In this document: in pieces, positions 2,843-56,366 of the stretch
Layout of the letters: each line of letters begins with the position of its first letter
Position numbering within the stretch: the stretch's first letter is position 1
NCBI GenBank assembly: GCA_038087875.1
Contig: CM075993.1
Span: 4,342,001-4,406,000 of the forward strand
Reading direction: 5' to 3'
DNA length: 64,000 nt
DNA from: Malacoraja senta
Taxonomy: Eukaryota
The notes under the pieces: model-generated
What the model was told of the DNA's origin: nothing
Database searches by the model: none
Seen by the model: only the letters and a program-made list of their open reading frames with translations
Made by a program: the position numbers and the translations under genes

Positions 2843-3889
2843 CTGAAACATCACCCATTCCTTCTCTCCAGAGTTGCTGCCTGTCCCGCTGAGTCTCTCC
2901 AGCATCTTTGGTTTAAACCAGCATCTGCAGTTCCTTCCTACACCTTTTCGGGTCTGGACCCTTCTTCAGACTGATTGGTGTCGGGGGAGATGGGGGGAGG
3001 GGGTGAGAAAGAGGTGGAGGAAGCTGGAAAAGAGAGGGTGGTTGGGATAAAGCCCGGCAAGTGATAGGTGGATACAGATGCGGGAGGGGTTTGTAGAAAC
3101 AAGAAACTCCCGATGCTAGTTTGCAATCGGACTCCCTTTTGTCTCCTTTAAGTTAGATTTTGCTCTTTGGGAATCAAGGGATATGGGGAGAAAGTAGGTA
3201 TGGGGTACTGATTTTGGATGATCATATTGAATGGCGGTGCTGGCTCGATGGGCCGAATGGCCCACTCCCGCACCTATTTTCTATGTTTTCAAGTCTAGCC
3301 ATTGTCACTTACTCCACATATCTAACCAAGAATACATGGAGTGGCGGAGTAGCTCAGCGACATCCCAGGACAACGTTGTATAGGGAACGTTTCAGCTCGG
3401 GACCCTTCTCAGTCTGAAGAAGGCCCGCAACCCACAACGTCGCCTATCCATGTTCTCCTCAGATGCTGCCTGACCAGCTGCGTAACTCCAGCACCCGGTG
3501 TCTTCTTTTGTAAACATGCATAGTTATAGAGATACAGCAGGGAAACAAGTCTGAAGGATCTACTGGATCCCACGACAGAAAGCAAAGAACAAACGACACT
3601 TAGCTGAGCCAGACAACCTTGTGTCACGTTTATTCCAGAAGCCCCTTTTACCCACATTCTCACCGATCATAACCCGGGTGTAGTATTGCGTACAGTTTTG
3701 GTCACCAAATCTGAGGAAAGAAATTCTTGCCATAGAGGGAGTACAGAGAAGGTTCACCAGACTGATTCCTGGGATGTCAGGACTTTCATATGAAGAAAGA
3801 CTGGATAGACTCGGCTTGTACTCGCTAGAATTTAGAAGATTGAGGGGGGGATCTTATAGAAACTTACAAGATTCTGTTAGGGGTTGGAC

Positions 3890-4089
3890 NNNNNNNNNNN
3901 NNNNNNNNNNNNNNNNNNNNNNNNNNNNNNNNNNNNNNNNNNNNNNNNNNNNNNNNNNNNNNNNNNNNNNNNNNNNNNNNNNNNNNNNNNNNNNNNNNNN
4001 NNNNNNNNNNNNNNNNNNNNNNNNNNNNNNNNNNNNNNNNNNNNNNNNNNNNNNNNNNNNNNNNNNNNNNNNNNNNNNNNNNNNNNNNN
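3890..4089. other. Assembly gap (200 N)
   Basis: N run adjoining a CR1 fragment. Confidence 1.
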
Positions 4090-6817
4090 CTACGAAACTG
4101 CACGTCTTTGGATGTGGGAGGAAATCAGAGCGCCCGAAGGAAGCCCCCGCCGTCGCAGGAAGAACGTGCAAACTCCACAAAGTCAGCATTGAATCTGTGT
4201 CGCTGGCCAGTGAGGCAGCAGCTCTACAACCTGTGGCACTGTAATGGAGAATCTAGAACTGCCCACGATTGTCCAAAGTATTGGGAGCTTGCTGTGTACA
4301 ACCTGGATGTACTGCTCCCTATATTACAACAGTGATTACACCATAGAGTTATACAGCGTGGAAAAGGCCCTTCAGCCCAACTTGCCCATGCTGACCAACA
4401 TGCCCCATCTTCCTGGGTTTGATATCCTTCTGAACCTCTCCGATTCATGTACCTGTCTAAATGTTTCTTAAATGCTGCAGGAGTACCTGCCTCAACCACC
4501 TCCTCTGACAGCTCGTTCCATACACCCGCCACCCTTTGTGTAAAAATGTTACCCCTCAGGTTCCTATTAAATCTTTCGCCCCTCACCTTAAACCCATGTC
4601 CTCTCATTCTCCATTCCTCTGGGCGAAAGACACTGTGCGTTTGCCTCAGCTATTCCTCTCATGATTTTGTCTACCTCTATAAGATCATCCTTCATCCTCC
4701 TGCGCTCCGAGGAATAAAGTCGCAGTCTGCTCAACCGCAAGCCCTCGAGTCTTGGCAACATCCTCGTAAATCAACATCACTGCGTATTATTTTGATAAGC
4801 CAGCCTTTATCTGGAGATCTTGAAAGACATTAGGAATGTACACCCTGTCACACACCCAGATAAACAGATTATGAAGGGCAAAATACCAGCCAAAGTTGTA
4901 ATTTTTGTCCAGTGATCTAGCAAAATATGTCTGCACCATATCTGCATGATCTAACATGGACTATTGCAGCTACATGTGGAGGTGGACGAGAGTTGGGAAC
5001 ACCTTTATCACCACAGCAAATGTTTCTTGCCTTTGGAAGACTTGGTAGAGCATTAAAGATCAAGGCAGATCATTTTGCCTCATTTCTTGCATTTCCTTGA
5101 TTTAGACTGAGGCCATGTCACCGGAGCAGAATTAGACCATTCGGCCCATCGAGTCTACTCCGCCATTCAAACATGGCTGATCTACCTTTCCACACTCAAC
5201 CCCATTCTCCTGCTTTCTCCCCATAACCTTTGACGCCCTTACTAATCAAGAACCTGTCAAACTCCGCTTGTAAAAATACCCACTGACTTGGACTTCACAG
5301 CCATCTGTGGCAATGAATTCCACCACCCTCTGACTAAAGAAATTCCTCCTCGTCTCCTTTCCAAAGGTGTGGGAAGGAACTGCAGATGCTGGTTTACACC
5401 GAAGATAGACACCAAAAGGCTGGAATAACTCAGTGGGACAGGCAGCATGTCTGGAGAGAAGGAATGGGGTGATGTTTCGGGTCGAGACCCTTCTTCAGAC
5501 TGATTGTAGTAAGGAGTATACCAAAGATAGTGCCATTCACAGACAAAATACAAACTGCTGGAGGGTCTGAATCAGTCTAACGAAGGGGGCAGACTCCTTT
5601 AGACTCCTTTCAAAAGGTACGTCCTTTTACACTGAGGCTGTGCCCTCTGGTCCTAGACTCTCCCCTCATTCACTCTATCCAGGCCTTTCCCTATTTGGTA
5701 AGTGCGAATGAGATCCACCCCAGTTCTTCACACCAGTGAGTACAGGTCCAGAGCTGTTAGACGCTCATTATGTGTTCCACTGAGTTTATGCCAGCTCTCA
5801 GAATAGTCTTATTAATCCCCCACATACACCCGCCTTATTTCTGAAGAAGGTCTCGATCCAAAACGTCACCTATTCACGTTCTGCCGAGTTGCTGCCTGAC
5901 CTGCTGAGTCACTCCAGCACTTTGTGGCTTTTTCTGTAAACCAGCATCTGCAGTTCTGTGTTCCTACATCCATCTGCCTATTTCTTGATGTCTCTTCTCT
6001 CACACGTTCCCGTTAGACAATAGACAATAGGTGCAGGAGGAGGCCATTCGGCCCTTCGAGCCAGCACCGCCGTTCAATATGATCATGGCTGATCATCCCC
6101 AATCAGTACCCCGTTCCTGCCTTCTCCCCATATCCCCTGACTCTGCTATTTTTAAGAGCCCTATCTAGCTCTCTCTTGAAAGCATCCAGAGAACCTGCCT
6201 CTACCGCCCTCTGAGGCAGAGAATTCCACAGATCCGATTCCTTTAACCCGATTTCTCCACCAGACACCTACTCCAATTTAGCAGCCAGTTAACATGCCAA
6301 CATGTCTTATGAATGTAAGGGGTCCTGGCCAGCACCTGGGCAGGTACATAGATAGGAAAGGTTTAGAGGGATATGGGCCAAACACAGGCAAATGGGACTA
6401 GCTTAGATGGGGCATCTTGGATGGTATGGATGAGTTAAGCTGAAGTGCCTGTTTCCATGTTGTATGACTGAGGCTGACAGATTCTTGATTTGAACGGGTG
6501 TCGGGTTATGTGGAGGAGGCAGGAGAATGGGATTTGGAGGCAGTGACCAGCCATGGTTGAATGGCGGAGTAGACTTGAAGGGCAGAATGGCTTAATTCTG
6601 CTCCTTGAACTTTTGATCTCTATGACGTGGTCCTACAGAAAACACTGCACGTAGACAACACACAGATCGTTGGACATGAGAGAAAGCTGCACTACCTGCT
6701 GCACCACTTGCAAGCAGGACAACGTCGTTCCTCTTTCCCCTCCTCCCCAACCCTCTCCCTGGCTTGTCCTTCCCCCTGGAGAAGTCAGATGGCCAGCTGT
6801 AATTCATGTGGGCTCAC

Positions 6818-8757: not shown

Positions 8758-8845
8758 CAGCAGAATGGAGTGGATATTAGGATGTAGCAGGTGCCTCCAT
8801 TAAAGCAGTAGGAATCGTAGCTATCTGGACAGAGTTCTCCATGTG
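8758..8845 (-). CDS. nrg4: Neuregulin-4-like gene, EGF-domain exon (AHGELCPDSYDSYCFNGGTCYILISTPFCW)
   Basis: 88-nt exon with acceptor tttctgaattctcatag and donor gtaagt. It encodes the first four EGF cysteines in the phase 1/phase 2 pattern typical of ErbB ligands. Confidence 0.9.
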
Positions 8846-11689: not shown

Positions 11690-12467
11690 GTGACACGTGA
11701 CAATAAGCGAACTAAACGGAATTGATACTGGGTAGGAAAGAACTGCAGATGCTGGTTTAATCTGAAGATAGACACAAAATGCTGGAGTAACTCAGTGGGA
11801 CAGGCAGCACCTCTGGAGAAAAGGAATGGATGACGTTTCGGGTCGTGCCCTCACTTGGTGGCCTTCTGCGCTATCTCCAGACAATGGAGGAGGCCCACGA
11901 CGGAAAAGTCAGTACGGGAATGGGGAGGGGGATCAGCAAACCGGGAGATCAGATGGACCTTGACGGATGGAGCGCAGGTGTTGCTGAACTACATCGAGAA
12001 TATCAGATGTCGAAACGTATCAGACAGAATCATCACGGCATCGTATGTATGATCAGCTTCAGAAAGATACGACGCTGAAGAATCTCCTGAATCCCACGAC
12101 AGAAAGCAAAGAACAAACGACACTTAGCTGAGCCAGACACCTTGTGTCACGTTTATTCCAGAAGCCGCTTTTACCTACATTCTCACCGATCATAACCCGT
12201 GTGTAGTTAAGGCCAATTAGTGCGTCTGACCTCGGAGTTGTTATTGAGCTCTTGTGGCTGGACCTTCTCGTCAGCGGAGACAGGCTGTATGCAAAACCAA
12301 CGTGGGTGTGAAGGCGCCACAATGCTACTGGCAACAACAACTCATTGGAGGGAACCACCATGTTGTCTATTTCGGTGCTGCAGGTTTAGCCTTCAAGAGG
12401 GAACTGGACTAATTCTCTGCTGGCGCGGAAACAGGCCTTTCGGCCCACCTTTCGACCCACTCATTAA

Positions 12468-12773
12468 AGGGCCTGTCCCACTGTACGAGGTAATTCAAGA
12501 GTTCTCCCGAGTTCCCCTGATTCGAACTCGGAGAATTACGGTAATAGCCGTTCGTAGGTACTCGGGGCTCTCGTGGACATTTTTCACAGAGCTGAAAAAA
12601 CTTCACGAGTTACCGCGTTTCCCGAGTACCTGCCGTTAGCGTTACGAGCCGCTACGGGACATCCACGAGCTCCGACGTAGCCGCTACGTACATTCTATGT
12701 ACTTACCACGAGTTTGATTTTTTTTTAAACTCGGGAGAGCTCTTGAATTACCTCGTACAGTGGGACAGCCCCT
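12468..12773. mobile_element. PIF/Harbinger-like MITE inserted in an HE1 SINE
   Basis: TIRs of about 50 bp starting agggcctgtcccactgtacgagg; TAA TSD on both sides. Confidence 0.8.
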
Positions 12774-13166
12774 TAACACGATCCTGCACAAACTAGGGAC
12801 AATTTACAAATGTTCCAAAGCCAATTAGCCTACAAACCTGTACATTTTTGGAGTGTGGGAGGAAACCGGAGCACCCAGAGGAAACCCACGCGGTCACTGG
12901 GAGAACGTATAAACTCCGTCCAGGCCCATAGTCAGTAGCCAGGGTCAAAACCGGGTCTCTGGTGCGGTAGGCAGCAACTCTACCACTGCGCCCCTGAGCC
13001 ACCCTCCCTATGCCACCCCTTGTATCTCTACATAAGCACAAGTACTTGGTGCCATAATCATAATTGAGGAAGAACAAATGCAGATAAGCCTTCCCATTAA
13101 AGATTCCCTGAACATAAGCATAACATTTAACTACCAGACACACACAGGTTCTTTGACATAGAGAGT

Positions 13167-15838: not shown

Positions 15839-16782
15839 ACCGTCCAATTATACCATTACAGCTCCAATACTATATCCTGCACTCTGCATATTTTCTCTTT
15901 GGCAATACCTGTTGTACTCATGTCTGGTATGAAGTGCCTGGATAGGATCCAAAAGAAAGGTTCTCACTGTATCCTGATGTTTGCTTCAATAATAACCCTA
16001 TGGCAACACGATTTCCATAAGGGATTTGGTAACATGCCTCAAAGGTTTTCGTGGAAATTTCAAATTCATGGTGCATGAGGTAACGTATTGGTGTGAACAG
16101 AAGATTGGCTGGTTTTATAGGAATGAGAGAACAGACAGAATAGATCTGTTTATAAGTTCACGTTCGTAAGTCGTAGGGGCAGATTTAGGCCATTCGGCCC
16201 ATCGCGTCCATCCTACCATTCAATCATGGCTGATCTATCATTCCCTCTCAAGCCCAATCTCCTGCCTTTTCCTCATAACCCTTGACACCCGTACTAATCA
16301 CGAGTCTGTTAATCGCTGCCTTAAAATAACACTCCACAGCAATGAATCCCATAGATTCAACACCATCTGACTAAAGAAATTCCTCCTCGTCTCCTCTCTG
16401 AAGGTACATCCTTTTATTCTGAGGCTGTGCCCTCTGGTCCTAGATTCTCCCACTAGTGGAAACGTCTTCTCCACATCCACTCTATCCAGGCCTTTCACTA
16501 TTCGGTAAGTTTCAATGAGGTCCCCCCCTCACCCTTCTAAACTCCAGCGAGTATAGGCCCAGTGCCTTCAAATGCTCATCATATGTTAACCTAATCGTTC
16601 CTGGGATCATTCTCATAAACCTCCTCTGGACCCTCTCCAACGCCAACAAATCCTTCGGCAAATACGGGGCCCAAAACTGCTCACGATACTCCAAATGCCG
16701 GTCTGACCATCGCTTTATAAAGCCTCAGCATTACAAACGAGTGGCAGGACAGTGCTTCACAGTGATGTGGCAGTGACCTGGT

Positions 16783-17330
16783 TCATAGAAACATAGAAAA
16801 CAGGTGCAGGAGGAGGCCATTCGGCCCTTCGAGCCAGCACCGCCATTCATTGTGATCATGGCTGATCGTCCCCTATCAATAACCCGTGCCTGCCTTCTCC
16901 CCATATCCCTTGACTCCACTAGCCCCTAGAGCTCTATCTAACTCTCTCTCAAATCCATCCAGTGACTTGGCCTCCACTGCCCTCTGTGGCAGGGAATTCC
17001 ATAAATTCACAACTCTCTGGGTGAAAACGTTTTTTCTCACCTCAGTCTTAAATGACCTCCCCTTTATTATAAGACTGTGACCCCTGGTTCTGGACTCGCC
17101 CAACATTGGGAACATTTTTCCTGCATCTAGTTTGTCCAGTCCTTTTATAATTTTTTATATGTTTCTATAAGATCCCCCCTCATCCTTCTAAACTCCAGTG
17201 AACACAAGCCTAGTCTTTTCAATCTTTCCTCATATGACAGTCCGGCCATCCCAGGGATCAATCTCGTGAACCTACGCTGCACTGCCTCAATCACAAGGAT
17301 GTCCTTCCTCAAATTAGGAGATCAAAACTG
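16783..17330 (-). mobile_element. CR1 LINE 3' fragment; another diverged copy is adjacent at about 16165-16730
   Basis: MFPMLGESRTRGHSL...QRVVNLWNSLP translation and tail. Confidence 0.9.
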
Positions 17331-17461
17331 TTCAAGAGAAGGAATGGGTGACGCTTTGAGTCGAGACCCTTCATCACCCAAAACGTCACCCATTCCTTAT
17401 CTCCAGTGATGTGGCTTGTCCCGCCGAGTTACTCCAGCATTTTGTGCCTAACATTCCCTAC

Positions 17462-17474
17462 CTGGTGTTTCCAT
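17462..17474 (-). CDS. nrg4: Neuregulin-4-like gene, first coding exon (ATG GAA ACA CCA G = METP+; whole exon 17462-17506)
   Basis: On the minus strand a polypyrimidine acceptor (tttattccttttag) precedes 17506, the ATG is at 17474-17472, and a donor (G|gtaggg) follows 17462. Phase 1 joins the EGF exon in frame. A tiny start exon with no signal peptide matches known NRG4 architecture. Confidence 0.75.
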
Positions 17475-18355
17475 ATCACTGCAGTCCTTTCGAACCGGGA
17501 TCTGACCTAAAAGGAATAAAAGTGTGATTTTAGTAGGTTTCAGGAACGGGGATTGTTGGCTTTTGCCATGTTGGGCTCATTAAATCAGCTGGTGTCAGAA
17601 GAAGATGCTGATTTACAAAAAAAATACCCCGCGCGTGGTGACGGTTTAACGAAAGCTCGCCGACTGAGAGCGACGGACTCTGTACATCAGAGGCACAGAC
17701 AACACCTGGTGGAAAAAAGCACGGGAAACATTGAGCAAAGTCGCAAGCAAGGCTGAGTTCACCCCGTGGACCGGGCAATAGAAACATCGAAACATAGACA
17801 AAAGGTGCAGGAGTAGGCCATTCGGCACTTCGAGCCAGCACCGCCATTCTTTATGATCATGGCTGATCATCCAAAATCAGTTTGAGAAGGAACTGCAGAT
17901 GCTGGAAAATCGAAGGTAGACAGAAATGCTGGAGAAACTCAGCGGGTGAGGCAGCATCTATGGAGCGAAGGAAATAGGCAACGTTTCGGGTCGAAACCCA
18001 AGGGTTTCGACCCGAAACGTTGCCTATTTCCTTGGGTTTCGACCCGAAACTTTGCCTATTTCATTCGCTCCATAGATGCTGCCTCACCCGCTGAGTTTCT
18101 TCAGCATTCTTGTCCACATCCAAAATCAGTTCTCCGTTCCTGCTTTCTACCCCGTATCCCTTGATTTCTTTATCCATGAGAGCTAAATCCAACTCTCTCT
18201 TGAAAACATCCAGCGAATTGGCCTCCACTGCCTTCCGTGGTAGAGAATTCCACAGATTCACAACTCTCTGGGTGAAAATGTTTTTCCTCATCCCGGTCCT
18301 AATCCGAGAGGAGGTGGAGGGAGGTGCTGCAGTAAGATGAACCGGGGGGTCTTAC

Positions 18356-18383
18356 CTTCCACACCTTCGATGTCGCCCCCCCC
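18356..18383 (-). other. Putative 28-nt 5'UTR micro-exon of the nrg4-like gene
   Basis: Good acceptor (cctttgttccacag) and good donor (AAG|gtaaga) 28 nt apart, between the putative first exon and the ATG exon. Confidence 0.4.
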
Positions 18384-18849
18384 CTGTGGAACAAAGGCTG
18401 ACGAGGGTCTTCAGCCAGTGGACTCGATGGGCCGAATGGCCTAATTCTACTCCTATAACTTGTGAACTTGTGGACCAGGCGTGCGCAGAGGGACATCGGT
18501 TCGCGGGACGACCGGAATGGAGGCGACTTCGACAGTGAGCCTTTCCCCTGCCCCAGCTTTCTCACCAACCCCCCAACAAAATCAGTCTGAAGAAGGGTCT
18601 TGAACCCAAAGCATCGGCTAGCCATGTTCTCCAGAGATGCTGCCTGACCCGCTGAGTTACTCATGCACTTTAAGTCCTTTTTTTAACACAAAGCCTGACC
18701 GGCGAGGCTTTTCCTCTCCGAAGAACATAAGGGACACTTGTTTAAGGAGGATCTCAACCTGAAACGTCACCCATTCCTTCTCTCCTGAGATGCTGCCTGT
18801 CCCGCTGAGTTACTCCAGCATTTTGTGTCCATCTATAAGGGATTGGTTG

Positions 18850-19320
18850 GATTTTTTTTTTAAATTATTTTTTTTACAGAGTTCTTACATAGCTTCAATT
18901 TTTAAAGTTTTTTGTTGAAGAAAAGAAATAGAGAAATAAATAAATAAAAGAGACTATAAACTAATAGAAAGGAGAAAGAAAAAAAAAAGCAAGAAGGAAA
19001 GGAGATTACAAATATAAATATTGTGGAGATAGATCCTATGTAAGAACTAGATGTTGAGTATAGTTGTTCATACAACCCTGAACTCAAGTTGTGACTTTAA
19101 TTTTGTGTTAAACCAGTTTACTTTAAAAAAAATCAATAAATGGAGACCATATTTTAGAAAAGAATTCTGGTTTGTCAATTAATACCAATCTTATTTTTTC
19201 CAAATGCAAGATCTCGGTCATTTCCATAATCCACATTTTAATTGTGCGGGTTGCTGGTTTTTCCCAAAATTTAAGTATTGATTTTTTTCGCAGTTATTAA
19301 ACTGTAATCAAGAAAGTGTC
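18850..19320 (-). mobile_element. L1/Tx1-clade LINE 3' fragment
   Basis: Reverse complement encodes roughly LITAKK.ILKFWEKP...KMWIMEMTEILHLEKIR...FSKIWSPFIDF, then a T-rich 3' UTR and A-rich tail. Confidence 0.65.
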
Positions 19321-19576
19321 TCTAGCGGCTGGACTGGTTGGATTTTTATACCAATCCATTTGTTTCTCGGCCACCACTACTGACTAACTTTTACCCAATG
19401 CGCTGTGTTTGAACGCTCCAGCAGCCATGGTAGGATTTGAACTCACATTTCCAGATTATTAATTCAGGCAAAACACAAAGTGCCGGAGCAACTCAACAGG
19501 TCAGGCAACACCTGGGGAGGGAATGGACAGGCGACGTTTCGGATCGTGACCCTTCCTAAGATGGAAGCCACGACTC

Positions 19577-19610
19577 AGTCTGAAGAAGGGTCTCGACCCG
19601 AAACGTCAAC
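19577..19610 (+). ncRNA. Minimal hammerhead ribozyme motif
   Basis: CTGAAGAAGGGTCTCGACCCGAAACGTC intact at 19580-19607. Confidence 0.65.
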
Positions 19611-20295
19611 CATTCCTTGTCTCCAGAGATGCCGCCTGTCCCGCTGAGTTACTCCAGCATTTTGCGTCTATCTCACCTATATCCACCTATCACTCGCCAG
19701 GCTTTGCCCCACTCCCACTCCCTTTTCCAGCGTTCTTCCCCTTACTCCCCATTTGGGGGCTGCCCGGTGGCGCAGCGGTAGAGTTGCTGCCTTACAGCAC
19801 CAGAGACCAGGTTCGATCCTGACTAGGGATGCTGTCTGTACAAAGTTTGTACGTTTTCCTTGTGACCGCGTGGGTTTTCTCCGGGTGCTCCGGTTACCTC
19901 CCACATTCCAAAGACATGCAGTTTTGTAGGTTAATTGTGTTCTGTAAATTGTAAATTGTCCCTGGTGTGTAAAACAGTGATAGTGCTAGTGTGTGAAGTG
20001 GGCCGAAGGGCCTGTTTCCACGCTGTATCTCTAAAGTCTAAAATCTATTGGACTCTTTTTCAGACTGATTTAGCTTGGGTCCCGACTGGAAACATCGCCT
20101 GTCCATTCCCTCCACAGATGCTGCCTGACCCTTTGAGTTCCTCCAGCACTTTGCGCTTAGCTTGTGATTCCAGTATCTGCAGTCTCTGGTATCCCCTTTC
20201 GGCTTACCATTATAGGCAACGTAACCCCTCCCCCCCCCCCCCCCCCCACCCCCCAGCATCGTTTCCCAGCAAAGACACAGAAGCTCTCGACTTAC

Positions 20296-20700
20296 CTGTA
20301 GTGCAGCCTGCCACCTGCAATGGCTTCCCTGAGATCCTTTCAAGTCAGCTTGTGGTACAATTCACTCTTGGACCTGTCATCGTTGCAGGAGAAGTGCGTG
20401 TGGAAGTTGAGCTCCGGGCTGCTGAAATATTTTCTCCACACCTTTAATGGAAGAATCTCAGGTCCCAAGCAGGACGAGCGGACCCCCAAACTAGGGGGTG
20501 GTCTCAGTGTTGTTTGGGGTCCCTGAGTGTACCACCCTGACGGGGTGCAGAACCTCCTCGCTCTGTATCTCACAGTCGACAGACCTCTCCCAGCCCGCAA
20601 CACTTCCTCATTCGAGCACTGCCCACTTTGGCCGACGGCCCAGACACATCTGATCAATCAAATCCATTTCCTACCTTTCCCCCGTAAGCAGCGCTGAGAT
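20296..20700 (-). other. Putative non-coding first exon of the nrg4-like gene
   Basis: Consensus donor CAG|gtaagt at 20296/20295 ends a unique, GC/CpG-richer block. The upstream boundary is approximate. Confidence 0.5.
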
Positions 20701-26440: not shown

Positions 26441-27267
26441 CTAGTAAAACCTGATCTCAAATCATCCTCTACCCCCTTTACAATGGACAAAGACTTTTGT
26501 TCCGTGCACTAGCCAGTTTACAGTGGCCAACCCACATTAAAACATTAACGTATAGGCAATGCCAACCCTTCCAAATGAAATTCAGTGCTGGAACATCAGA
26601 GCCTAATGGACAGCTCCCAGGAGCAAAAGATCCAAATGTCCATCTACCCTTACAACTTGGGAGCTGTTGCCAGGAATAAGAAGATAGACACAAAATAGCC
26701 GGAGACCCGGGTTCCATCCCCAGTACGGGTGCTGCCTGTACGGAGTTTGTACGTTCTCCCCGTGATCTGCGTGGGTTTTCTCCGAGATCTTTGGTTTCCT
26801 CCCACACTCCAGAGACGTACAGGTTTGTAGGTTAATTGGCTTGGTGTAAGTGTAAGTGTAAATATTGTCCCTAGTGGATGTAGGATAGTGTTAATGTGCG
26901 GGGATCGCTGGTTGGCGCGGACCCGGTGGGCCGAAGGGCCTGTTTCCGCGCTGTATCTCTAAACTAAACTAAACTAAACAAAGAATAAATAAAAAGATAG
27001 GTCTATCTATGTTTATAGAAGACAAGGCTCTGGTGAGAGCAAACCAAAGCCAAGCCAATGGGACCCAGCAATCTGGCAGGATTGCTTTGGGTCAGGTGTA
27101 TATTCTGAACATTTCAGTTTGGGATGGGCTGCACAACGCAATAATTTCTAAACTATTTTAGTAATTTCAAATATTTTCACGGGCTTCTCTGTAAACTCCT
27201 CTAAAAATCGCTTCTGACTTTGTGAGTGTTTCCCCATATCTGTAATAGTATGTTTTATGTTTTTACA

Positions 27268-27570
27268 GTTTAGTTTAGTTTAGAAATGCAGCGCGGAAAC
27301 AGGCCCTTCGTCCCACCGAGTCCGCGATGACCAGTGATCCCCGTACACTAGCACTATCATCAGCGACAATTTACAATTTTACCGAAGCCAAGTAACTTAC
27401 AAACCTGCACGTCTTTGGAGTGTGGGAGGAAACTGGAGCACCCGGAGAAAACCCACGCGGTCACGGGGAGAACCTACAAACTCCGCACAGACACCCGCAG
27501 TAGTCGGGATGGAACCCGGGTCTCTGGCGCTGTAAGGCAGCAACTCTACCGCTGTTCCACTGTGCTGCCC
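27268..27570 (-). mobile_element. HE1-like SINE
   Basis: Full-length reverse-complement copy; an oppositely oriented copy lies at 26698-26978. Confidence 0.8.
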
Positions 27571-28730: not shown

Positions 28731-30260
28731 TTTAATGTAAAAATAATACAAATTGTTCGAGGAACTCAGCGGGTCAGGCAGCATCAGTGGAAGGGCAGCA
28801 TGGCAGAGCAAAAGGGTCTCGAAACGTCACCTATTCCTTTTCTCCAGAGTTGCTGCCTGGCCCGCTGAGTTACTCCAGCTTTTTGTGTCTTGCTGGTACA
28901 ACTGCTGCCTCGCAGCGCCAGAGACCGGGGTTCCATTCTGACCTTGGGTGCTCTCTGTGTGGAGTTTGCATGTTCTGGCTGTGACCATCTGGGTTTCTTC
29001 CCGATGCTCCGGTTTCCGCCCACATCCCAAAGACGTGCGGGTTTGTAGGTCGATTGTCCTCTGCAAATTGCCCCTAGTGTGTACATAGAACATAGAACTA
29101 ACAGTACAGCACAGGAACAGGCTCTTTCAGCCCACAATATCTACGCTGAACCTGATGCCAATTTAAATTAATCTTCTCTGCCTGCACGTGATTCATAACC
29201 CTCCTTTCTCTGTACATCCATGTGCCTATATAAAAGCTTCTAAAATGACACTGCCCAATCTGCCTCCACCACCACCTCTGGTATCTGCAACTCTCGAGAA
29301 GATTGTTAAGGGCTTGGACACACTAGAGGCAGGAAACATGTTCCCGAGGTTGGGGGAGTCCAGAACCAGGGGCCACAGTTTAAGAATAAGGGGTAAGCCA
29401 TTTAGAACGGAGACGAGGAAACACTTTTTCTCACAGAGAGTGGTGAGTCTGCGGAATTCTCCGCCTCAGAGGGCGGTGGAGGCAGGTTCTCTGGATACTT
29501 CCAAGAGAGAGCTAGATAGGGCTCTTAAAGATAGCGGAGTCAGGGGAGAAGGCAGGAACGGGGTACTGATTGGGGATGATCAGCCATGATCACATTGAAT
29601 GGCGGTGCTGGCTCGAAGGGCCGAATGGCCTACTCCTGCACCTATTGTCTATTGTCTATTGAGAACCTAGAACAGGAGTGGATGAGAAAGTGGGATAACA
29701 TAGAACCAGTCTGAACGGGTGATCGATGGCCAGCAAGGACTCGATGGGCCGAAGGGCCTGTCTCCATGCTATATCTCTGAGTAAACATCACAGTCCGACG
29801 GTATCGATATGGGTTTCTCATTATCGTGTCAACATCCAACCACCAGAGGGAGCTGATACCACTAGAATTACAACATTAGTTAAAGAAACTCATTTCTCTC
29901 ACCAATAATTAATTACTCTTGGGTTACGAGTGCCTGATTTATGTACGAGCAAGCATTTGGGATACCGGTGGGATGGATTTGCCCGTAGGCATCTACTGCC
30001 GTGTGGGAACTCAGTTTGTGTCAATATCTAGAAGCCAGGGACTGCAGATGCTGGTTTGCAAAGATAGACACAATGCGCTGGAGAAAACTCAGGCAGCATC
30101 TCTAGAGAGCACGGATAGTGAATTTGCAGGACAGGACACTCCTAAGGATCCCGACCCAAACCGTCACCTATCCATGTTCTCCAGGGATGCTGCCTGACCT
30201 GCTGAGTTACTCCAGCATTTTGTGTCGATCTTCATACCCAACCAAACCTGCTATAGACAC

Positions 30261-32013: not shown

Positions 32014-34571
32014 TTCCCGGCATACTTTGGTCCATTTTGTAATCCTGAACTCCATTTATCACAGCAAGAATCTTTCTCGTTCCTCTTCGAAACTTTCTTG
32101 ATTCATTCCCCTCCCACGAGCATTAATTAAGCACGGAGCTCCCTGCAAGACTTCCTGTCGAATTGTTTAACCTGTTTGCCACAACCTAAACTCTTCATCC
32201 ACAATTCCCCGCTGTAATTCTCCCTATGCAAATAAGTCCCTTAATTGAATAGACTATTTGCATAAATGGCTAATTTGCATACAAATGCGTTTGGTCATGG
32301 TCTGACTTGGATTTTTTTTGTGTGACTCTTGTGCTCATCAAATGACAGATGACAACACTGGGACATGCAACACTCTCTATTTTGGGCAGCCACCATCCAT
32401 ATTAAGCACTCCAAGGTCAGCAGGAACATTAACGTTGCCTCCACTCTCTCTCATCGCTTTGACCCAGGTCCATTAGAAAGGGTTTGATAGATATTTCTAC
32501 AGCACCTGTAACGACCTCAAGACTTTCCAAAGAGCTTTACTGCCAAGGAAGTCTAGACACAGTTATATTGTCGGAAATGCAACAGCACGGACATATAAAT
32601 AGCAATGAGATAATGATCAAATCATCACTTGGTCTTTTTAAGTATTTATTGCTCTCAGGTAGTGTCCATATTGTAATTTATGTATTTTTTGTCTGCTTTC
32701 GTTCTGAATGCGTGGGTTTGGTTAGGGGGCTTCTGGAATCTGAATTTCCCTGAGGGATCAATAATGTATTTATTATTATTATTATTTATTATTATTACCT
32801 CCTGAGAAATATTGGCCTGAACACTAATGGGAGCTCCCCTGTTATAGTTCAGGTAGGATTACGGGATCCGGAGAGGGTGCTGGTTTAACAACCTCTTAAG
32901 TTATAGGGAAGATAGACACAAAAAGCTGGAGTAACGCAGCGGGACAGGCAGCTTCTCTAGTCTGAAGAAGGGTTTCGACCCGAAATGTCACCCATTCCTT
33001 CTCTCCAGAGATGCTGCCTGTCCCGCCGAGTCTTCGGTTTAAACCAGCATCTGCAGTTCCATCCTACGCATAAATGATAGGATCAGAACTAGGCCATTCG
33101 GCCCATCAAGTCTACTCCACCATTCAATGATGGCTGATCTATCCTTCCCTCCTAACCCCATTCTCCTGCTTTCTCCCCTTAACCCCTGACACCCTAACTA
33201 AGCAAGAATCTATCTTTCTCTGCTGAAGTCTAGCATGCCGAGTCTTGTGAGGGAACAAAAAAATGACAAAATGATATATTGGAACTGAAACATTCATTGC
33301 TTTAGAACTTTGTTCCTGTTATATTCTTCAGGAATAGCCACTTAGGTAAGTGATGAAGAGTCCTGATGGCTGAGATGATCGGTAAACTAGACAAAGCATT
33401 GATCCATACAGAGCAGGAGGCTTTCACTTGCTGTTCACTCGCCTTAAAAATATACAATGACTTGGCCTCCACAGCCATTTGTGGCAATGAATTCCTCAGG
33501 TTCACCACCCTCTGGCTAAAGAAATTCCTCCTCGTCTCTGGGTTAGGCAGCATGTCTGGAGAACATGGATAGGTGATGTTTCGGGTCAGGACCTACCACC
33601 AATCAAAGTTTTGGCCTATTGGTGTTACTTCAGCATTGAATGTCTTTCAAAGTTTAAAGGACATGTGCGGGGTAGGTTTTTTACAGAGGGTGTTGGGTGC
33701 CTGGAATATAGTTCCAAGGGTGGTGGTGGAGGGAGATACAATAGTGGTGTTTAAAAGGCTTTCAGATAGGCACATTGATGTCAGGATATGGACATCATGA
33801 ATACTGTGTTGATATGGATCACATGCAGGCAGATGAGATTAGCTTAACTTGGCATCGTATTTGGCACGGACATTGTGGGCCGAAGGGCCTCTTCCTGTGC
33901 TGTACTGTTCTATGTCGTATACTTTGAGATTTAGACTTTAGACTTTAGAGATACAGCTCGGCACACTATCCTACACACGAGGGACAATTTTACAACTTAC
34001 CAAAGCCAATGATCCTGTACGTCTTTGGAGTGCGTGAGGAAAGTTGAGCACCTGGAAAAAAACCCACGCGGTCACGGGGGGAGCGTACAAACTCCATACA
34101 GACAGCACCGGTGGTCAGGATCAAACCCGGGTCTCTGGTGCTGTGAGGCAGTAACTCTACTGCTGCGCCACTGTGCCGCACTGGACACATATATATATAT
34201 ATCAATATATATATATATATATATATATATCAATGCAAGTTGAATTCAGTGCACGAGTTTTAATTGACACGGTATTCATTTTTGGACTTTCTGAGAGATT
34301 GTGGTGAGTATGTGCAGCATCTGGTGATTTCTTTTATAAGGTTGGGTTGCAACACCTCAGAAGTTGGGTGTGAAAGTTTTCCGCTACATGGAGCCATCTG
34401 CAGTGATGAGACTTCTGTTGAACAGAAAGGTGGCTAATAGGAGTAGTCACTGACGACACTAATTAATAGGTGTTTCGTAAAGTGGGGAAATGCAATGCTC
34501 TGAAAAACAGAGCCTTGACACATTGAACAACCAGGCAGTAGCTACGCAGATAGTGGGGAAAGTTGATAACT

Positions 34572-35112
34572 CGCACCTCCTCCAACCTCGTCTACTGTAT
34601 CCGCTGTTCAAGATGTGGACTCTTATACATCGGCGAGACCAAACGTAGACTAGGCGATCGTTTCGCTGAACACCTTCGCTCAGTCTCCCTGGACCCACCT
34701 GACCTCCCGGCCGCTAAACACTTTCATTCCCATTCCCATTCCCACACTGACCTTTCTGTCAAGGCCTCCTCCATTGTCAGAGTGAGGCTAAACGCAAACT
34801 GGAGGAACAGCATTTCATATTTCACTTGGGCAGCTTACAACCCAGTGGTATGAATTTTGATTTCTCTCACTTCAAGTAACCCCTGCATTCCCTCTCTCTC
34901 CATCCCTCCCCCACCCAGGTCGCACCAGCTTCTCATTCTCAGCTAACAAAGGCCTGTTTCCTTTATCACAGATACTTTTTTGCATTTGTCCTATATCTCT
35001 CTACATCACCATCTCGTTTTCTTTCCCCTCGATTCCCAGTCTGAAGAAGGGGTCTCAGCCCGAAACGTCACCCATTCCTTCTCTCCACAGATGCTGCCTG
35101 TCCCGCTGAGTT
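34572..35112 (+). mobile_element. Penelope-like retroelement 3' fragment: GIY-YIG endonuclease remnant, 3' UTR and terminal repeat
   Basis: Translation TSSNLVYCIRCSRCGLLYIGETKRRLGDRFAEHLRSV has the VY..CxxC..YIGET..R...RF.EH signature of PLE GIY-YIG domains, frameshifted downstream. It runs directly into the hammerhead-bearing repeat at 35041. Confidence 0.9.
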
Positions 35113-35435
35113 ACATAGAAACATAGAAACATAGAAATTAGGTGCAGGAGTAGGCCATTCGGCCCTTCGAGCCTGCACCGCCATTCAATATGATCATGGC
35201 TGATCAACCAACTCAGTATCCCGTACCTGCCTTCTCTCCATACCCTCTGATCCCTTTAGCCACAAGGGCCACATCTAACTCCCTCTTAAATATAGCCAAT
35301 GAACTGGCCTCGACTACCCTCTGTGGCAGAGAGTTCCAGAGATTCACCACTCTCTGTGTGAAAAAAGTTCTTCTCATCTCGGTTTTAAAGGATTTCCCCC
35401 TTATCCTTAAGCTGTGACCCCTTGTCCTGGACTTC
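35113..35435 (-). mobile_element. CR1 LINE 3' fragment inserted into the Penelope terminal repeat
   Basis: The Penelope repeat is interrupted at gctgagttac and resumes at about 35436-35485. Confidence 0.9.
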
Positions 35436-40379: not shown

Positions 40380-40907
40380 CATCCTAATTTGAGGAAGGAC
40401 ATCCTCGTGATTGAGGCAGTGCAGCTTAGGTTCACGAGATTGATCCCTGGGATGGCGGGACTGTCATATGAGGAAAGATTGAAAAGACTAGGCTTGTATT
40501 CACTGGAGTTTAGAAGGATGAGGGGGGATCTTATAGAAACATATAAAATTATAAAAGGAGTGGACAAGCTAGATGCAGGAAAAATGTTCCCAATGTTGGG
40601 CGAGTCCAGAACCAGGGGCCACATTCTTAGAATAAAGGGGAGGCCATTTAAGACTGAGGTGAGAAAAAACGTTTTCACTCAGAGAGTTGTGAATTTGTGG
40701 AATTCCCTGCCACAGAGGGCAGTGGCGGCCAAATCACTGGATGGATTTAAGAGAGAGTTAGATAGAGCTCTAGGGGCTAGTGGAATCAAGGGATATGGGG
40801 AGAAGGTTATTGATTGGGGACGATCAGCCATGATCACAATGAATGGCGGTGCTGGCTCCAAGGGCCGAATGGCCTCCTCCTGCACCTATTTTCTATGTTT
40901 CTATGTT
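40380..40907 (+). mobile_element. CR1 LINE 3' fragment
   Basis: ORF2 C-terminal motifs and tail. Confidence 0.95.
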
Positions 40908-41016
40908 TCGAAATCTTCGCTGTACCCTTTCCAGCTTGTGTGCACGTTCTCTAAGGTTACCAGTGAATAGCAACATACAATGAACCTCAATGGAACAACA
41001 TCTGATATCTGTCTCT

Positions 41017-41540
41017 CATAGAAACATAGAAACATAGAAAGTAGGTGCAGGAGTAGGCCATTCAGTCCTTCGAGCCTGCACCGCCATTCAATATGATCAT
41101 GGCTGATCATCCAACTCAGTATCCTGTACCTGCTTTCTCTCCATACCCCCTGATCCCTTTAGCCACAAGGGCCACATCTAACTCTCTCTTAAATATAGCC
41201 AATGAACTGGCCTCAACTACCTTCTGTGGCAGAGAATTCCAGAAATTCACCACTCTCTGTGTAAAAAATGTTTTTCTCATCTCAGTCCTAAAAGATTTCC
41301 CCTTTATCCTTAAACTGTGACCCCTTGTTCTGGACTTCCCCAACATCGGGAACAATCTTCCTGCATCTAGCCTGTCCAACCCCTTAAGAATTTTGTAAGT
41401 TTCTATAAGATCCCCCCTCAATCTTCTAAATTCTAGCGAGTACAAGCCGAGTCTATCCAGTCTTTCTTCATATGAAAGTCCTGACATCCCAGGAATCAGT
41501 CTGGTGAACCTTCTCTGTATTCCCTCTATGGCAAGAATCT
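41017..41540 (-). mobile_element. CR1 LINE 3' fragment
   Basis: ORF2 C-terminal motifs and tail. Confidence 0.95.
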
Positions 41541-42894
41541 CTCCAATGTACCCGGTGACCTCATGTCTAATCCTCAATCAAATCATTCCCTTTTCGCAAT
41601 TCCCAGAAACATCAAAGAAACAGGCGCTTCCGGAGCAGTCTATCAAGCACCGATTACAATCAGATGGGCCAGCAGTCTACAGAACGGCTGCTCGCATCCA
41701 GCAGATGAACTACAGTAAGTAGACATTAGATGAATTCTCGCCACTCTCACCACGAACGCAATCCGCCGAATGCAACGTTAATCGGTCGGGTTAAAGATGT
41801 GTGTGTGGACAAATTCAAGGCGGTGGGTAGTTTCCTCAAACAGTTAAAAAAAAAAAATCACAATGTGTAGGAAGGAACTGCAGGTGCTGGTTTACACCGA
41901 AGATAGGACGCAAAAAGCTGGAGTAACTCAGCGGGACAGGCAGCATCTCTGGAGAGAAGGAACGGGTGTCGTTTCGGGTCGAGACCCTTTTTCAGACTCT
42001 GAAGAAGGGTCTCGAATTTAAAAAAAAACACAAACAAGATACTGAGGTCGCCAAAAAATGCTGGAGAAACTCAGCGGTTGAGGCAGCATCTATGGAGAGA
42101 GACACAAGGGTCTCGACCCGAAACGTCGCCTGTTGCTTCTCTCCATAGATGCTGCCTCACCCGCTGAGTTTCTCCAGCATTTTTTGTCCTCCTTCGATTG
42201 TTCCAGCATCTGCAGTTCTTTCAATAGACAATAGGCAATAGGTGCAGGAGTAGGCCATTTGGCCCCTCGAGCCATTCAATGTGATCGTGGCTGATCATCC
42301 CCAATCAGTACCCCGTTCCTGCCTTCTCCCCATATCCCCTGACTCCGCTATTTTTAAGAGCCCTATCTAGCTCTCTCTTGAAAGCATCCAGCGAACCGGC
42401 CTCCACTGAGGCAGAGAATTCCACAGACTCACCACTGTGAGGCTTTCTTAACCAAGATATTGGGGTCTACTGGATTCCCCCGTTACTGGTACTAAAACCC
42501 CTTCACCGCGATCCCAATAAACAAACAGAGGCGCATAAAATAATCTCCGACCACGCTTAACTGAAACGCGTGGATTTAATGGTCTCCAGCGTCGATGAAA
42601 AGACCGAGTGAGTGTTTGGGCTGGTTGTGCTGGCGCGGCGTCGACTTCTGGCGCTGGAGAATTCAGCACCTTGGTCAGCGCGTCGTGTCTTTCCCTTCTC
42701 AGGGAAGCTCTCTTCTCATTTGGCAGCGAGAGGGGGGTGGGGGGGGGGGGGGGGGGGGGGGGGGGAGGAAGAGGAGGGAGACTCCTGTTTTTTTTTTTTT
42801 ACCCTGCAATTTCTGTTGCATATTCCGTGTGTGTGTGTGTGTGTGTTTTCTTCCACCGCTGTTATTTAGTAAGATGATGTAAATAATAGTTATA

Positions 42895-43816: not shown

Positions 43817-45074
43817 GTAAGGCATCGGTACACCATTTCCACACGTTAAGGGGGAGGAAATAATTAAATACATGGCTCCCATCCCTTGCTCTTTCGACCA
43901 GAAGCATAGCTTGTGCAAGATGCAGCGTTCTAAATATATATATATATTGTATAATGTCCTTTTCTGTTATAAATAGCCTCGGGGAAGCGATTTCAGCAAA
44001 TTGGGAAAAGCCTTTTGCTGTGTTTTCAAACCGGAGGGTCGTGTGGGATGTGTTATTTCATAGCTTACGTTGAGAATCTGTGCATTGTGTGTGTGTGTGT
44101 GTTTGGGAAGACGCGTGAGTATTTGCCTCTTGGTGGATGGAGTAGGGTCGCGTTACCCAAGGCCCTGCGACTTAACATGTACAGATCATACTGATCTGAA
44201 GGGGTCAGCTGTGTAGATGTGCCCGAGCGCTTGGCGATCCCACCACAAGACCCATGAAACCTTCTTCAAGCCACATTGATTGGAGAGACCTGCGTCCCAT
44301 TATTGAAATCACAGCCTCCTCTCTGGAGACCAGCAAAACCGTTAAATATGGATTCATAAATATTCAGGTAATCCACACGAGACTGTTCTGCCCATCTATT
44401 TATTTTGTTTTCGACCAGGGTCATGCTTTTAATTCCTTTGATGACCACACTGTTTCTACTTCTTCAGCCAGCGAGCCTTTAGCCTGCCAGTCGAGATGGC
44501 CAATGTACCGAGAATTTGGTGATAATCCCACCTTCCTGAAATAACACTGAAGGGGTTTCTCAGGGGGGAAATGTAATGGGGATTGGTGAAGGGGGAAGGG
44601 GTGGGGGTGGAGGTGGGTGGGGGGGGAGATATGTGGGTGTGAGTGCAGAGGGAATGGTGCGTTTTAGATCGACACAATATGCTGGAGTAACTCAGTGGGA
44701 CAGGCAGCATCTCTGGGTGATGTTTTGGGGTCGAGACCCTTCTACAGGTCTGAGACCCTTCTCCATTCCTTCGCTCCAGAGATGCCACCCTGTCCCCGCC
44801 TGGGTTACTCCAGCATTTTGTGTCTATCTTTGATTTAAATCAGCATCTGCAGTTCTTTCCTGCACGAATGGTGCATCTTGTTGGATGTGACTTGGCAAAG
44901 ATTGACCCTATGTGAACTGGCTGAGTATGGGGACAGAGAAGGGCACGAATTATTACCTCCTTCCACACACAGCAGCAGCAGCAGCAGAAACAAAAGTTTC
45001 GTTTTGTTCTGGGTCAGAGTTTTCCTCCTTTATTTTCCTCTTCCTTGCTTTCCTTCCCCACATTTCCTCCCTTT

Positions 45075-45705: not shown

Positions 45706-46959
45706 GTATGCGCTTAATTCCCCATCATTTTGTCTCTGAATATAATTAGCAGAACTAGAGGCACAAGGATGGCATTTTGCCAACCTTTCCAATGTACCAT
45801 GAAAGACAATGTTAATTAATGAATGAAAGTGTCGGCGACATAACGACAGGTATGCTGTCACACTCAGCACGCTGCAACAAGTGTCTGATACCTGTGGGTA
45901 TTATCTGTGGGTGATGAATGATTCTGGCTGACACCACTTCTCTGTTTCCCAGACGCCATGTTTTGGTGCGCTGTGTATACCTCACGAACATATCCTGAGC
46001 TTTCACACGGCAACATGATTATGTTGCCAATGTTCAAACTCCAGTTGCTTTGCCCGAACCATACCTTTAATCATGACCCTTCCTCCGTAACAACCTCTTC
46101 AGTTCATAAGTGATAGGAATAGAATTAGGCCATTTGCCCATCAAGTCTACTCCGCCATTCAATCATGGCTGGTCTTTCTCTCCCTCTCAATCCCATTCTC
46201 CTGCCTTCTCCCCATAACCCCTGACTTCTAAACCCAGACTTCCATCTCGCCTCCTTTAAAACAGGTACTGTTTTAAACCTGGCTCTTTGACCAAGAATTT
46301 GGGCATCCATTGAATTGTGACAAAGGCGTCTGGTCTGCTTGCCTTCATTAGTTGTGACATTGGGAATAATATCAGGAAGTCATGATGCAGCGATGTAGGA
46401 CTTTGAGTTTGAGCTTTGTTTATTGTCACATGTACCGAGGTGCAGGAAAAAGCTTTTATTGCATGGTAACCAGTCAGCAGGAAGACTATACATGTTTACA
46501 ATCGGGCCACGTTTGGAATATTGTGTGTATTTCAGGTCGCCCCATTACAGGAAGGAAGTGAAGGCTTTGGTGGGGGTGCAGCAGAGATTTGCCTGATTGC
46601 TGCCTGGATTGGAGTGTATTGGCTCTGAGGATGACTCAGTTGGGTTGCTTTCTCCGGAATGCTGGAAGTTGAAGGGAAGTTTATAAAACGGGCTTCTCCT
46701 TCCGTGTCCATCTTCCATGTTTCAAATGTTGGCCTCGCTGTCATCGTCCGTCCTGAAAAGGACGCAAGCATCCGGCGACAATCAGCGGGAGCCATCACTT
46801 GTTGCAATAGATGATGGAGGTAGCAGAATTAGCTCGGGATACTTCCAGTTTCCAGCCCCCGCGACGTGGACGCTCCTGCTATGGGGCCTATAAAATGGTG
46901 TGAAGCGTAGACAGTTAGAACCTTTATCCCAGGGTTGAAATGTCAAGGGCATAGATATA

Positions 46960-47305: not shown

Positions 47306-47960
47306 GTATAAGATGTGGGATAAAGTTTAAAGGAGATGTGCAGAGGTTGGTGGATGCCTGGAACGTGTGGTGGAGGCAGATCCAATCGTGGCGTTTAGAT
47401 AGATAGGACTCTTAAAGATAGCGGAGTCAGGCGATATGGGGAGAAGGCAGGAACGGGGTACTGATTGGGGATGATCAGCCATGATCACATTGAAAGGCGG
47501 TGCTGGCTCGAAGGGCTGAATGGCCTACTCCTGCACCTATTGTCTATTGTCTGTGAAGAGGCTTTATGATTGACTCATGGATATGCAGCAAATGTTGGGC
47601 TGTGGATCATGTGCAGGCTGATGAGATTAGTTTATCTTATCATCACGTGTTGCACGGATACTGTGGGCCAAAGGGCCTGTTGCTGTACTGTTCTTTTCAA
47701 TGTTCTATTTTATAATGAATCCTTCTCAGTTTTGACATCAGAAATGTTCTTTGCTGTCTTGATCCGTTTTACAAAAGAAATCGAGATAGACTACGAACAT
47801 GGAAGCAAAGATGTCAATATTTCCCTTGCGATATCTCCAATCTCCATGTGTTATCGACTTTACTATCTTCCCTCCCCTTTGAATCCTCCTTCAATGGTAC
47901 TTTATTTGTCCCATGTATCGAGGTACAGTGAAATTCATGTTTGTATACGGTACATCAGTC

Positions 47961-48160
47961 NNNNNNNNNNNNNNNNNNNNNNNNNNNNNNNNNNNNNNNN
48001 NNNNNNNNNNNNNNNNNNNNNNNNNNNNNNNNNNNNNNNNNNNNNNNNNNNNNNNNNNNNNNNNNNNNNNNNNNNNNNNNNNNNNNNNNNNNNNNNNNNN
48101 NNNNNNNNNNNNNNNNNNNNNNNNNNNNNNNNNNNNNNNNNNNNNNNNNNNNNNNNNNNN
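47961..48160. other. Assembly gap (200 N)
   Basis: N run adjoining a CR1 fragment. Confidence 1.
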
Positions 48161-56332: not shown

Positions 56333-56366
56333 AGTCTGAAGAAGGGTCTCGACCCGAAACGTCACC
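56333..56366 (+). ncRNA. Minimal hammerhead ribozyme motif in the Penelope terminal repeat
   Basis: agt-CTGAAGA-a-GGGT ctcg ACCC-GAAAC-GTC-acc: CUGANGA and GAAA boxes, a 4-bp helix II, a palindromic ACGU helix III and a GUC cleavage triplet. Confidence 0.7.

Follow-up and report, generated by a model that had tools for sequence, protein, structure and literature searches.

How does a skate genome come to contain short palindromic copies of the end of a Penelope-like element (PLE), each bounded by direct repeats? The locus at 17868-18131 raises this question within a 64-kb stretch of Malacoraja senta DNA (64,000 nucleotides of contig CM075993.1, hereafter the window), where a first-pass annotation had noticed several such cassettes and had offered two readings of them, minimal products of integration or a non-autonomous family mobilised in trans as a hairpin RNA. 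Our analysis supports the former. We propose, with a probability of about 0.6, that each cassette is a separate, extremely 5′-truncated insertion of an endonuclease-positive (EN+) PLE, formed by two-strand, two-site priming, and not a copy of another cassette. Every count given here is drawn from this one window, 52% of which was self-masked.

The focal insert (17883-18116) consists of two head-to-head arms of a PLE end, lying between 15-bp direct repeats that match at 15/15 positions (17868-17882 and 18117-18131); the last 3 nt of the left copy are also compatible with the end of the element's tail. Both arms belong to subfamily B, and they differ by 7.3% over 82 columns. Counted from the predicted hammerhead cut, the tailed arm (17883-17999, minus strand) starts at -19, includes the tail of ~37 nt and lacks the CUGA-N-GA half of the hammerhead core, and the untailed arm (18034-18116, plus strand) extends from -19 to about +62. 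Between them lies a 34-nt junction piece (18000-18033, plus strand) that spans -21 to +12 and duplicates, over 32 nt, the start of the next arm; this duplicated stretch is either a templated insertion or the result of later slippage. The earlier description of the cassettes as nothing more than a terminal repeat and its inverted copy holds for the two arms, but the focal centre, which holds this 34-nt piece, is no simple palindrome.

The focal cassette splits a host repeat (~17800-18300, limits approximate, minus strand) that represents the 3′ end of an abundant LINE, presumably CR1-like, ORF-end fragments of which likewise occur in the window. Seventeen paralogous copies of this host repeat in the 64-kb window are without the focal insertion, and in these the target is uninterrupted and single-copy. 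The 15-bp repeats are therefore a true target site duplication (TSD) and both arms arrived at once, as the first-pass annotation had supposed in treating the cassette as a single insertion event. An alternative origin, in which one copy inserted first and an independent second one then hit its hammerhead region in inverse orientation, is refuted for the focal cassette by the single TSD that flanks it, and the 17 paralogous sites carry neither of its arms.

Similar comparisons were made for other cassettes. The window contains 18 paralogous read-through matches for the cassette at 48891-49072, and joints skipping this cassette occur in genome runs, the paralogues being their simplest source. 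The 16 matches for the flanks of the 2736 cassette are distant PLE ends only, and 6 of the 9 cassettes tested, the flanks of which are unrepeated in the window, gave no paralogous empty site. Four genome or RNA runs were compared over 48600-56700, a region that lies outside the focal cassette; the 15 joints listed of about 38,800 include no skip of 53150, 56262, 51722, 51200 or 52477, and no orthologous empty site was thus seen among them, which is no proof that such sites are lacking. One of the runs matches the window without any difference in unique stretches, may come from the source itself and does not count as independent. Contigs of two other runs enter the 53150 arm (29 letters, short of a 31-letter threshold; about 36, as judged from distances to the contig end), which suggests that this insertion is present in two further organisms. 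An exact 27-nt scan of metagenome contigs returned 0 loci, and no RNA run is listed as containing 16500-20300.

The identity of the arms follows from a unit profile that was built from copies inside the window and that found 72 matches. Read in the sense direction, the unit begins with a minimal hammerhead motif, continues for about 63 nt and ends in a tail of ~37-39 nt, with consensus 3′ ends at +63 and +102 from the predicted cut. Longer copies extend upstream; that at 35037 leads back to the frameshifted C-terminal end of the parent ORF (34575-34879, plus strand), which encodes a GIY-YIG endonuclease (Pfam PF01541; 22.9 bits vs a cut-off of 22.6 for 34575-34760) and is followed by a ~160-nt spacer and the hammerhead unit at 35037-35114. 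This linkage of the unit to a GIY-YIG ORF end across 34575-35114 confirms the Penelope identity given to the cassettes earlier, and on the basis of its sequence we assign the unit to the pLTR end of an endonuclease-positive PLE. The protein fragment of the transposon in the window has its best homologues in skates, rays and sharks, in agreement with a batoid source. The parent ORF fragment in the window is without a reverse transcriptase (RT) domain, and RVT_1, below its cut-off, lies upstream of GIY-YIG in 2 of the 6 homologues scanned; by eye, the linker between RT and endonuclease carries a C-x4-5-C-x2-C motif in five of these six and a degenerate one in the sixth, while the window fragment begins past the linker. 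According to the available portions of PMC8557442, a cysteine motif in this linker marks Neptune and Nematis, and the parent PLE probably belongs to the Neptune clade. The pLTR may contain a ~164-nt intron at 34876-35039 (plus strand), where the ORF stop codon shares bases with a donor-like GT and an acceptor-like CAG abuts the hammerhead.

With a descriptor of our own, 10 complete hammerhead cores were found in the window, all inside the unit, vs 0 in 200 shuffles. These cores possess an extra base after position 9 and a G10.1-C11.1 pair, and 15.2-16.2 is palindromic in 7 of the 10. Rfam returned no hammerhead match at E<=1 across the window, nor at E<=10 within 56250-56450; the unit arms draw sub-threshold Rfam matches to miRNAs.

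The head-to-head arrangement is far more frequent than the placement of the units would predict. Among 71 neighbour pairs formed by the 72 matches, those within 50 nt include 20 head-to-head, 2 tail-to-tail and 4 tandem pairs, and the 20 head-to-head neighbours compare with a mean of 6.5 when strands were shuffled (maximum 15 in 20,000) and of 1.1 under random placement (maximum 6 in 5,000). TSDs were scored on 17 of these pairs, those at 17334, 41864 and 54379 being left out owing to the loss of an outer end. A strong TSD (score of at least 9) was present in 7/17 pairs vs 1/272 mismatched-flank controls, and a further 3/17 had a weak one. In five pairs (3336-3520, 19466-19673, 28746-28892, 51200-51452 and 52477-52664) the arms are 20-32% apart and share no TSD, and these look like stacked independent insertions. 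The remaining 12 pairs are the cassettes proper, although this same-lineage split was made partly by eye and the arms of the 2170 and 32897 cassettes overlap too little for comparison. Strong TSDs flank 7/12 of the same-lineage cassettes vs 3/21 solo copies, a difference (Fisher p=0.016) that is confounded by age.

The four direct repeats on which the first-pass annotation had relied proved genuine and enclose inserts of 154-234 bp. Besides the focal 15/15 repeat, they are those of the cassette at 1069-1319 (untailed arm on the minus strand, tailed arm on the plus strand, subfamily A), the core 9-mer of which (1072/1311) extends to an 11/12 match; of the cassette at 2736-2955, which interrupts an older PLE end within helix II and has a 13-mer TSD (2736/2943) extending to 16/17; and of the cassette at 48891-49072 (14/14; 48891-48904/49059-49072), the arms of which turn at +4/+5, downstream of the cut, so that it retains no hammerhead. 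Two palindromes that had been placed at about 53150-53365 and 56262-56428 are also real. They form the cassettes 53135-53377 (palindrome 53150-53367; tailed minus-strand and untailed plus-strand arms) and 56247-56438 (palindrome 56260-56428; a short tailed minus-strand arm from about +29 and an untailed plus-strand arm from -31 that keeps a complete minimal hammerhead core), and each has a degraded TSD of 10/12, a score of 6 that was attained by 7.7% of the 272 mismatched-flank controls.

A cassette absent from the earlier list, at 2170-2324 (TSD 13/14), comprises a tail-only minus-strand arm (about +67 to +100) and an untailed plus-strand arm (-24 to +67); as read by hand, the two split the RNA between them at about +67, almost without overlap. 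Untailed minus-strand arms are joined to tailed plus-strand arms at 32897-33081 (weak TSD, 9/11), at 42045-42222 (no TSD found; the tail end abuts another repeat) and at 44652-44874 (TSD 9/9; a junction insert, read by hand, repeats the left arm). Two cassettes are old: that at 30030-30232, a tailed minus-strand arm with an untailed plus-strand arm for which a TSD was searched and none found, and the longer one at 51721-52077 (TSD 11/12), the arms of which extend upstream of the hammerhead. At the tail boundary, the tailed arm carries an 11-nt deletion in 2736-2955 and a 22-nt deletion in 32897-33081, and a third such deletion was seen in 51721-52077 (11-22 nt overall). These deletions may be the mark of two colliding polymerases, but short repeats flank them, so a later deletion would mimic this mark. 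A joint of the same type, 56128 to 56290, is present in three genome runs.

As a general account, independent insertion is hardly probable at all. It fits the five divergent pairs, the 2736 cassette does sit in an older PLE end, and in vitro the Anolis Poseidon protein cleaves the pLTR junction of its own element (PMC11167929); yet in the focal cassette and six others one strong TSD surrounds both arms. The earlier worry that the arms might differ in age or subfamily was therefore justified for 5/17 pairs but for none of the six cassettes then named. Together with the nesting of the 2736 cassette, the existence of pairs of unlike subfamily hints that older copies may be targeted close to their hammerhead.

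Could the cassettes instead constitute a family, in which a hairpin RNA transcribed from one cassette is reinserted in trans by PLE protein? The focal cassette is indeed predicted to form an extended hairpin (-164.5 kcal/mol, z=-18.9), which is trivial for a palindrome, and single arms fold no better than shuffled sequence (z -0.5 to 0.25). According to published work, mobilisation in trans requires no more than pLTR sequences (PMC3846280), and non-autonomous derivatives of PLEs are known (PMC8557442; bioRxiv 10.64898/2026.07.22.740005). Against this reading, junction 24-mers recurred at <=3 mismatches in 0/17 junctions in the 64-kb window, and in the only similar pair, 2736 and 17334, the untailed arm lies on opposite sides of the join. 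Moreover, the cassettes are spread over several subfamilies, their outer ends are common to solo copies, one complete core is kept in only 4/12 and two in none, with none in the focal cassette, and in the predicted focal hairpin the untailed start region would be double-stranded. Published retrozymes are, as far as the available text describes them, head-to-tail tandems and not palindromes. The junction test is blind to families below roughly one fifth of the cassettes, and old copies may exceed 3 mismatches; the sample is thus too small against minor families, and the 12 cassettes can exclude a dominant family while leaving room for minor ones. In a poly(A)-selected RNA run of another organism, 6% of which was read, no pile of molecule ends was seen in any cassette, in a type of library that would lose a short hairpin RNA, and the arms at 56262 showed near-equal depth on both strands. 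We consider mobilisation of such a family in trans very unlikely, and the suggestion of it made from the first inspection is not borne out.

What the cassettes do share is their outer ends, and here the first-pass annotation was right that the endpoints are non-random. The 3′ ends of the units are bimodal, with 30/72 at +57 to +76 (untailed) and 25/72 at +90 to +103 (tailed) from the predicted cut. Because both classes occur in solo copies as well as in cassettes, with identical outer ends, the fixed ends of the cassettes reflect two start sites of the parent element. The combination of the classes is regular: 14 of 16 scorable pairs unite a tailed and an untailed arm, 0 unite two tailed arms (binomial p=0.002 at 50:50), and the 2/16 that unite two untailed arms are both among the mixed pairs with divergent arms; all seven strong-TSD pairs have one arm of each kind. 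In the published anatomy, as given in the accessible sections of PMC8557442 and PMC3846280, PLEs carry an inverted, 5′-truncated copy and a 30-40-bp tail that is often at one end only. The available text of PMC11167929 describes the tail, for the Anolis Poseidon protein, as the stretch between two reverse-transcription start sites, and reports that this protein, a predicted dimer, cuts and extends both strands, with start sites alike on both strands in vitro. The absence of like-with-like pairs in our small sample suggests paired use of the two start sites, perhaps with a single RNA as template.

The inner ends tell a different story from the one first proposed, in which the turn-around lies at or near the hammerhead. 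Both arms do turn between about -35 and +5 in 7 of the 12 scorable cassettes, by hand curation, but never at the scissile bond. Likewise, 56/72 unit 5′ ends lie at least 6 nt upstream of the predicted cut (read-through) and 41/72 between -45 and -16, a count that is inflated near -30 by about six older copies whose upstream part is missing from the profile; no 5′ end (0/72) falls within 2 nt of the cut, and the profile under-detects very short arms. This distribution indicates that the copies derive from uncleaved RNA and that the cut does not define the junction, and we reject the notion that cleavage by the hammerhead produces the turn-around. In the accessible part of PMC11167929, ribozyme mutants of Anolis Poseidon leave insertion unchanged, ribozyme cleavage thus being dispensable. 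Junction microhomology is present in the 2736 cassette, where 3 nt within helix II are shared, in the 48891 cassette and, as read by hand, in the 32897 and 56247 cassettes, and templated junction inserts occur at 17868, at 51200 and, again by hand, at 44652. The junctions at 1072, 2186, 32908, 41864, 44666 and 56262 were read manually because the automatic aligner over-extends there.

Many 5′ ends pile up at a TCAGTC ~30 nt upstream of the hammerhead cut, a sequence that resembles the Initiator consensus. Contigs start in large piles at 56332-56334, the beginning of the core region, in three genome runs; the loose letters at 56332 resemble the element's upstream part, and those at 56333-56334 (two runs listed) have no common sequence (agreement 0.31). 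These piles fit a sharp 5′ boundary at the Initiator-like TCAGTC, although a polymerase stop would look identical. The same TCAGTC, at 56332-56334 and in many solo copies, also ends a pyrimidine tract plus CAG that resembles a 3′ splice site; helix I is where the intron end maps in D. virilis (PMC4209133).

We propose that insertion would begin with the GIY-YIG domain cutting the target with a stagger of about 9-17 nt, the length being that of the TSDs observed and the enzyme that encoded by the parent element. Uncleaved element RNA would then be reverse-transcribed from both target 3′ ends, from a distal start site at the end of the tail in one case and from a proximal site about 37 nt upstream in the other. 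The two cDNAs end prematurely, in most cases within the hammerhead motif's 5′ half, presumably where the RNA starts or where the polymerase stalls. Their ends would be joined head-to-head via short complementarity, often from helix II or nearby mini-palindromes, occasionally with the templated inserts seen at the joins, and the end product would be a dead palindromic stub. While the two end classes were observed here, two-site, two-strand priming is extrapolated from the in vitro Anolis Poseidon protein; the model rests on 12-17 cassettes, and the in vitro data concern the Poseidon clade, with coupled use of both sites on a single product outside their scope. Priming from both ends accounts for all 12 cassettes, including 2170-2324, the arms of which meet at about +67, and it accounts for the higher, age-confounded TSD rate relative to solo copies.

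The principal rival is fold-back priming, in which one cDNA stalls at helix II and primes itself, so that the second arm copies the first as a by-product of each insertion. It has been proposed for head-to-head PLE junctions with palindromes (in the available text of PMC3846280), the 2736 cassette turns on microhomology in helix II, and the symmetric turn-arounds of 3/12 cassettes (17868, 30030 and 48891) agree with it, equally well as with two-strand priming. Sub-variants common to both arms in four cassettes also favor fold-back, and they count for two-strand priming as well: in 42045 and 48891 the arms share a rare sub-variant and are mutual nearest neighbours among 53, and the arm partners rank 1-2 in 17868 and 2 in 56247, where a rare sub-variant is again common to both. 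In 5 of the 10 rankable cassettes (subfamily A, old copies), the partners of both arms rank only 5th-24th, and one arm's partner in the 51721 cassette ranks 23rd, so that a shared template is not demonstrated for these. More telling is the relative length of the arms. By hand curation, the untailed arm extends further upstream in 6/12 cassettes, the tailed arm in 3/12, and the two are equal (<=2 nt) in 3/12; hence neither arm is always a copy of the other. Fold-back that began with the tailed arm cannot yield the six longer untailed arms, and fold-back that began with the untailed arm would leave the tail without a template and fails in the three cassettes where the tailed arm extends further. 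The non-overlapping arms of 2170-2324 also count against fold-back. Fold-back, which the first-pass annotation had named as one option and which suits some cassettes, thus has no single direction that fits all 12, and we regard it as unlikely, while a hybrid, in which priming from both strands is joined by fold-back in a subset of events, is possible.

Two-strand, two-site priming has a stricter form, which we put forward tentatively as conceivable and well short of probable. A PLE protein dimer would be bound to use both start sites together on a single RNA, each serving one of the nicked strands, often at the sites of the 5′ pLTR, with run-off at the transcript's 5′ end, the Initiator-like TCAGTC ~30 nt upstream of the cut. 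If true, such obligate-pair twin priming would explain within one model why the tail is one-sided, why the arms are inverted head-to-head and why ~135-nt copies are so abundant.

Several features of the window lie apart from the PLE unit. Inverted-repeat elements unrelated to it were seen at 12467-12774, presumably a Harbinger-type MITE by its resemblance, and at 61606-61847; LINE 3′ fragments form a long inverted pair at 40398-41541 (407-nt arms, 79% complementary), and further inverted pairs lie at 26769-27458 and 567-950. An HDV-like ribozyme candidate at 46822-46899 (minus strand; Rfam CPEB3_ribozyme, 32.7 bits vs a gathering threshold of 35, E 8.5e-07) is single-copy in the window and directly follows a (TAT)n run. 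Its P1 stem seems kept by eye, with G-C pairs swapped relative to the mammalian consensus, although the Rfam alignment pairs it otherwise; a crude exon scan recognised no CPEB exon around it, and our search found no paper on an HDV-like or CPEB3 ribozyme in shark. A candidate exon at 8758-8845 (minus strand) has splice signals and an EGF-like domain, its best PDB match being an EGF/TGF-alpha chimera (E 3.5e-04) and a Pfam match being absent; judged from this exon, the window may be part of a gene for an EGF-family ligand. Two assembly gaps, at about 3890-4090 and 47960-48160, together contain 400 N.

The stubs are minimal inverted PLE insertions, the anatomy of which is already published, and annotators should not call them MITEs, microRNA precursors or a new mobile family. 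Our literature search, which covered few subscription papers and did not extend to Repbase or Dfam, found no paper on short palindromic PLE stubs or on such stubs in skates. The accessible parts of PMC8557442 and PMC11167929 name the formation of PLE inverted repeats and of the one-sided tail as an open question. The structure itself, known PLE anatomy in miniature, matters little; its value is as a natural data set, in which about one head-to-head pair per 3 kb makes start-site pairing and turn points countable and comparable with the in vitro system.

In L1 twin priming, each of the target strands acts as a primer, and the resulting inversion lies within a single TSD and has a microhomology junction. 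The two L1 cDNAs cover different parts of the RNA, whereas those of the cassettes usually overlap, the exception being 2170-2324. As in the minimal metazoan PLE hammerheads of Cervera and de la Pena (2014, PMC4209133), so far as the available text describes them, the motifs here have the core boxes, the extra base between 9 and 10.1, the G10.1-C11.1 pair and the palindromic 15.2-16.2; the predicted hammerhead, absent from the focal cassette, has a helix II of 4 bp, a YYCG loop and a helix I of only 2 bp, as in D. virilis. The same source, in that text, reports most motifs as single and tied to truncated PLEs, with opposite-strand pairs 100-700 bp apart. The non-LTR retrozymes of Li, Clavereau and Pollet (2026, bioRxiv 10.64898/2026.07.22.740005) are likewise protein-free, pLTR-related, hammerhead-bearing short repeats and, according to the portion available, are present in the single chondrichthyan genome sampled. 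By definition, however, they are tandem repeats in head-to-tail order, each unit holding a complete type I hammerhead, whereas the cassettes are head-to-head and mostly without a complete core (one in 4/12, two in none), and we do not class the cassettes as retrozymes.

The closest likeness is to published EN+ PLE insertion units (PMC3846280 and PMC8557442, in the parts available), which have head-to-head inverted arms, a one-sided tail, palindromic or microhomology junctions, a hammerhead motif in the pLTR and the GIY-YIG ORF end upstream. Those sources call the tail optional or "often" one-sided and, in these parts, give no counts of tailed and untailed pairing. The TSDs here are about 9-17 bp vs 8-10 bp in the A. 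vaga examples of the same papers, and, unlike the units described there, the skate insertions retain only ends of ~55-135 nt and are dense, with 20 head-to-head pairs in 64 kb. The Anolis carolinensis Poseidon element PAc, studied in vitro (Frangieh et al. 2024, PMC11167929), belongs to another clade, the homologues here carrying the linker cysteine motif, and the available text on it describes no inverted two-arm products. In that text, as in the cassettes, two start sites bracket the tail; those of PAc lie about 60-100 nt downstream of the hammerhead cut, on an uncleaved RNA template, with both strands extended.
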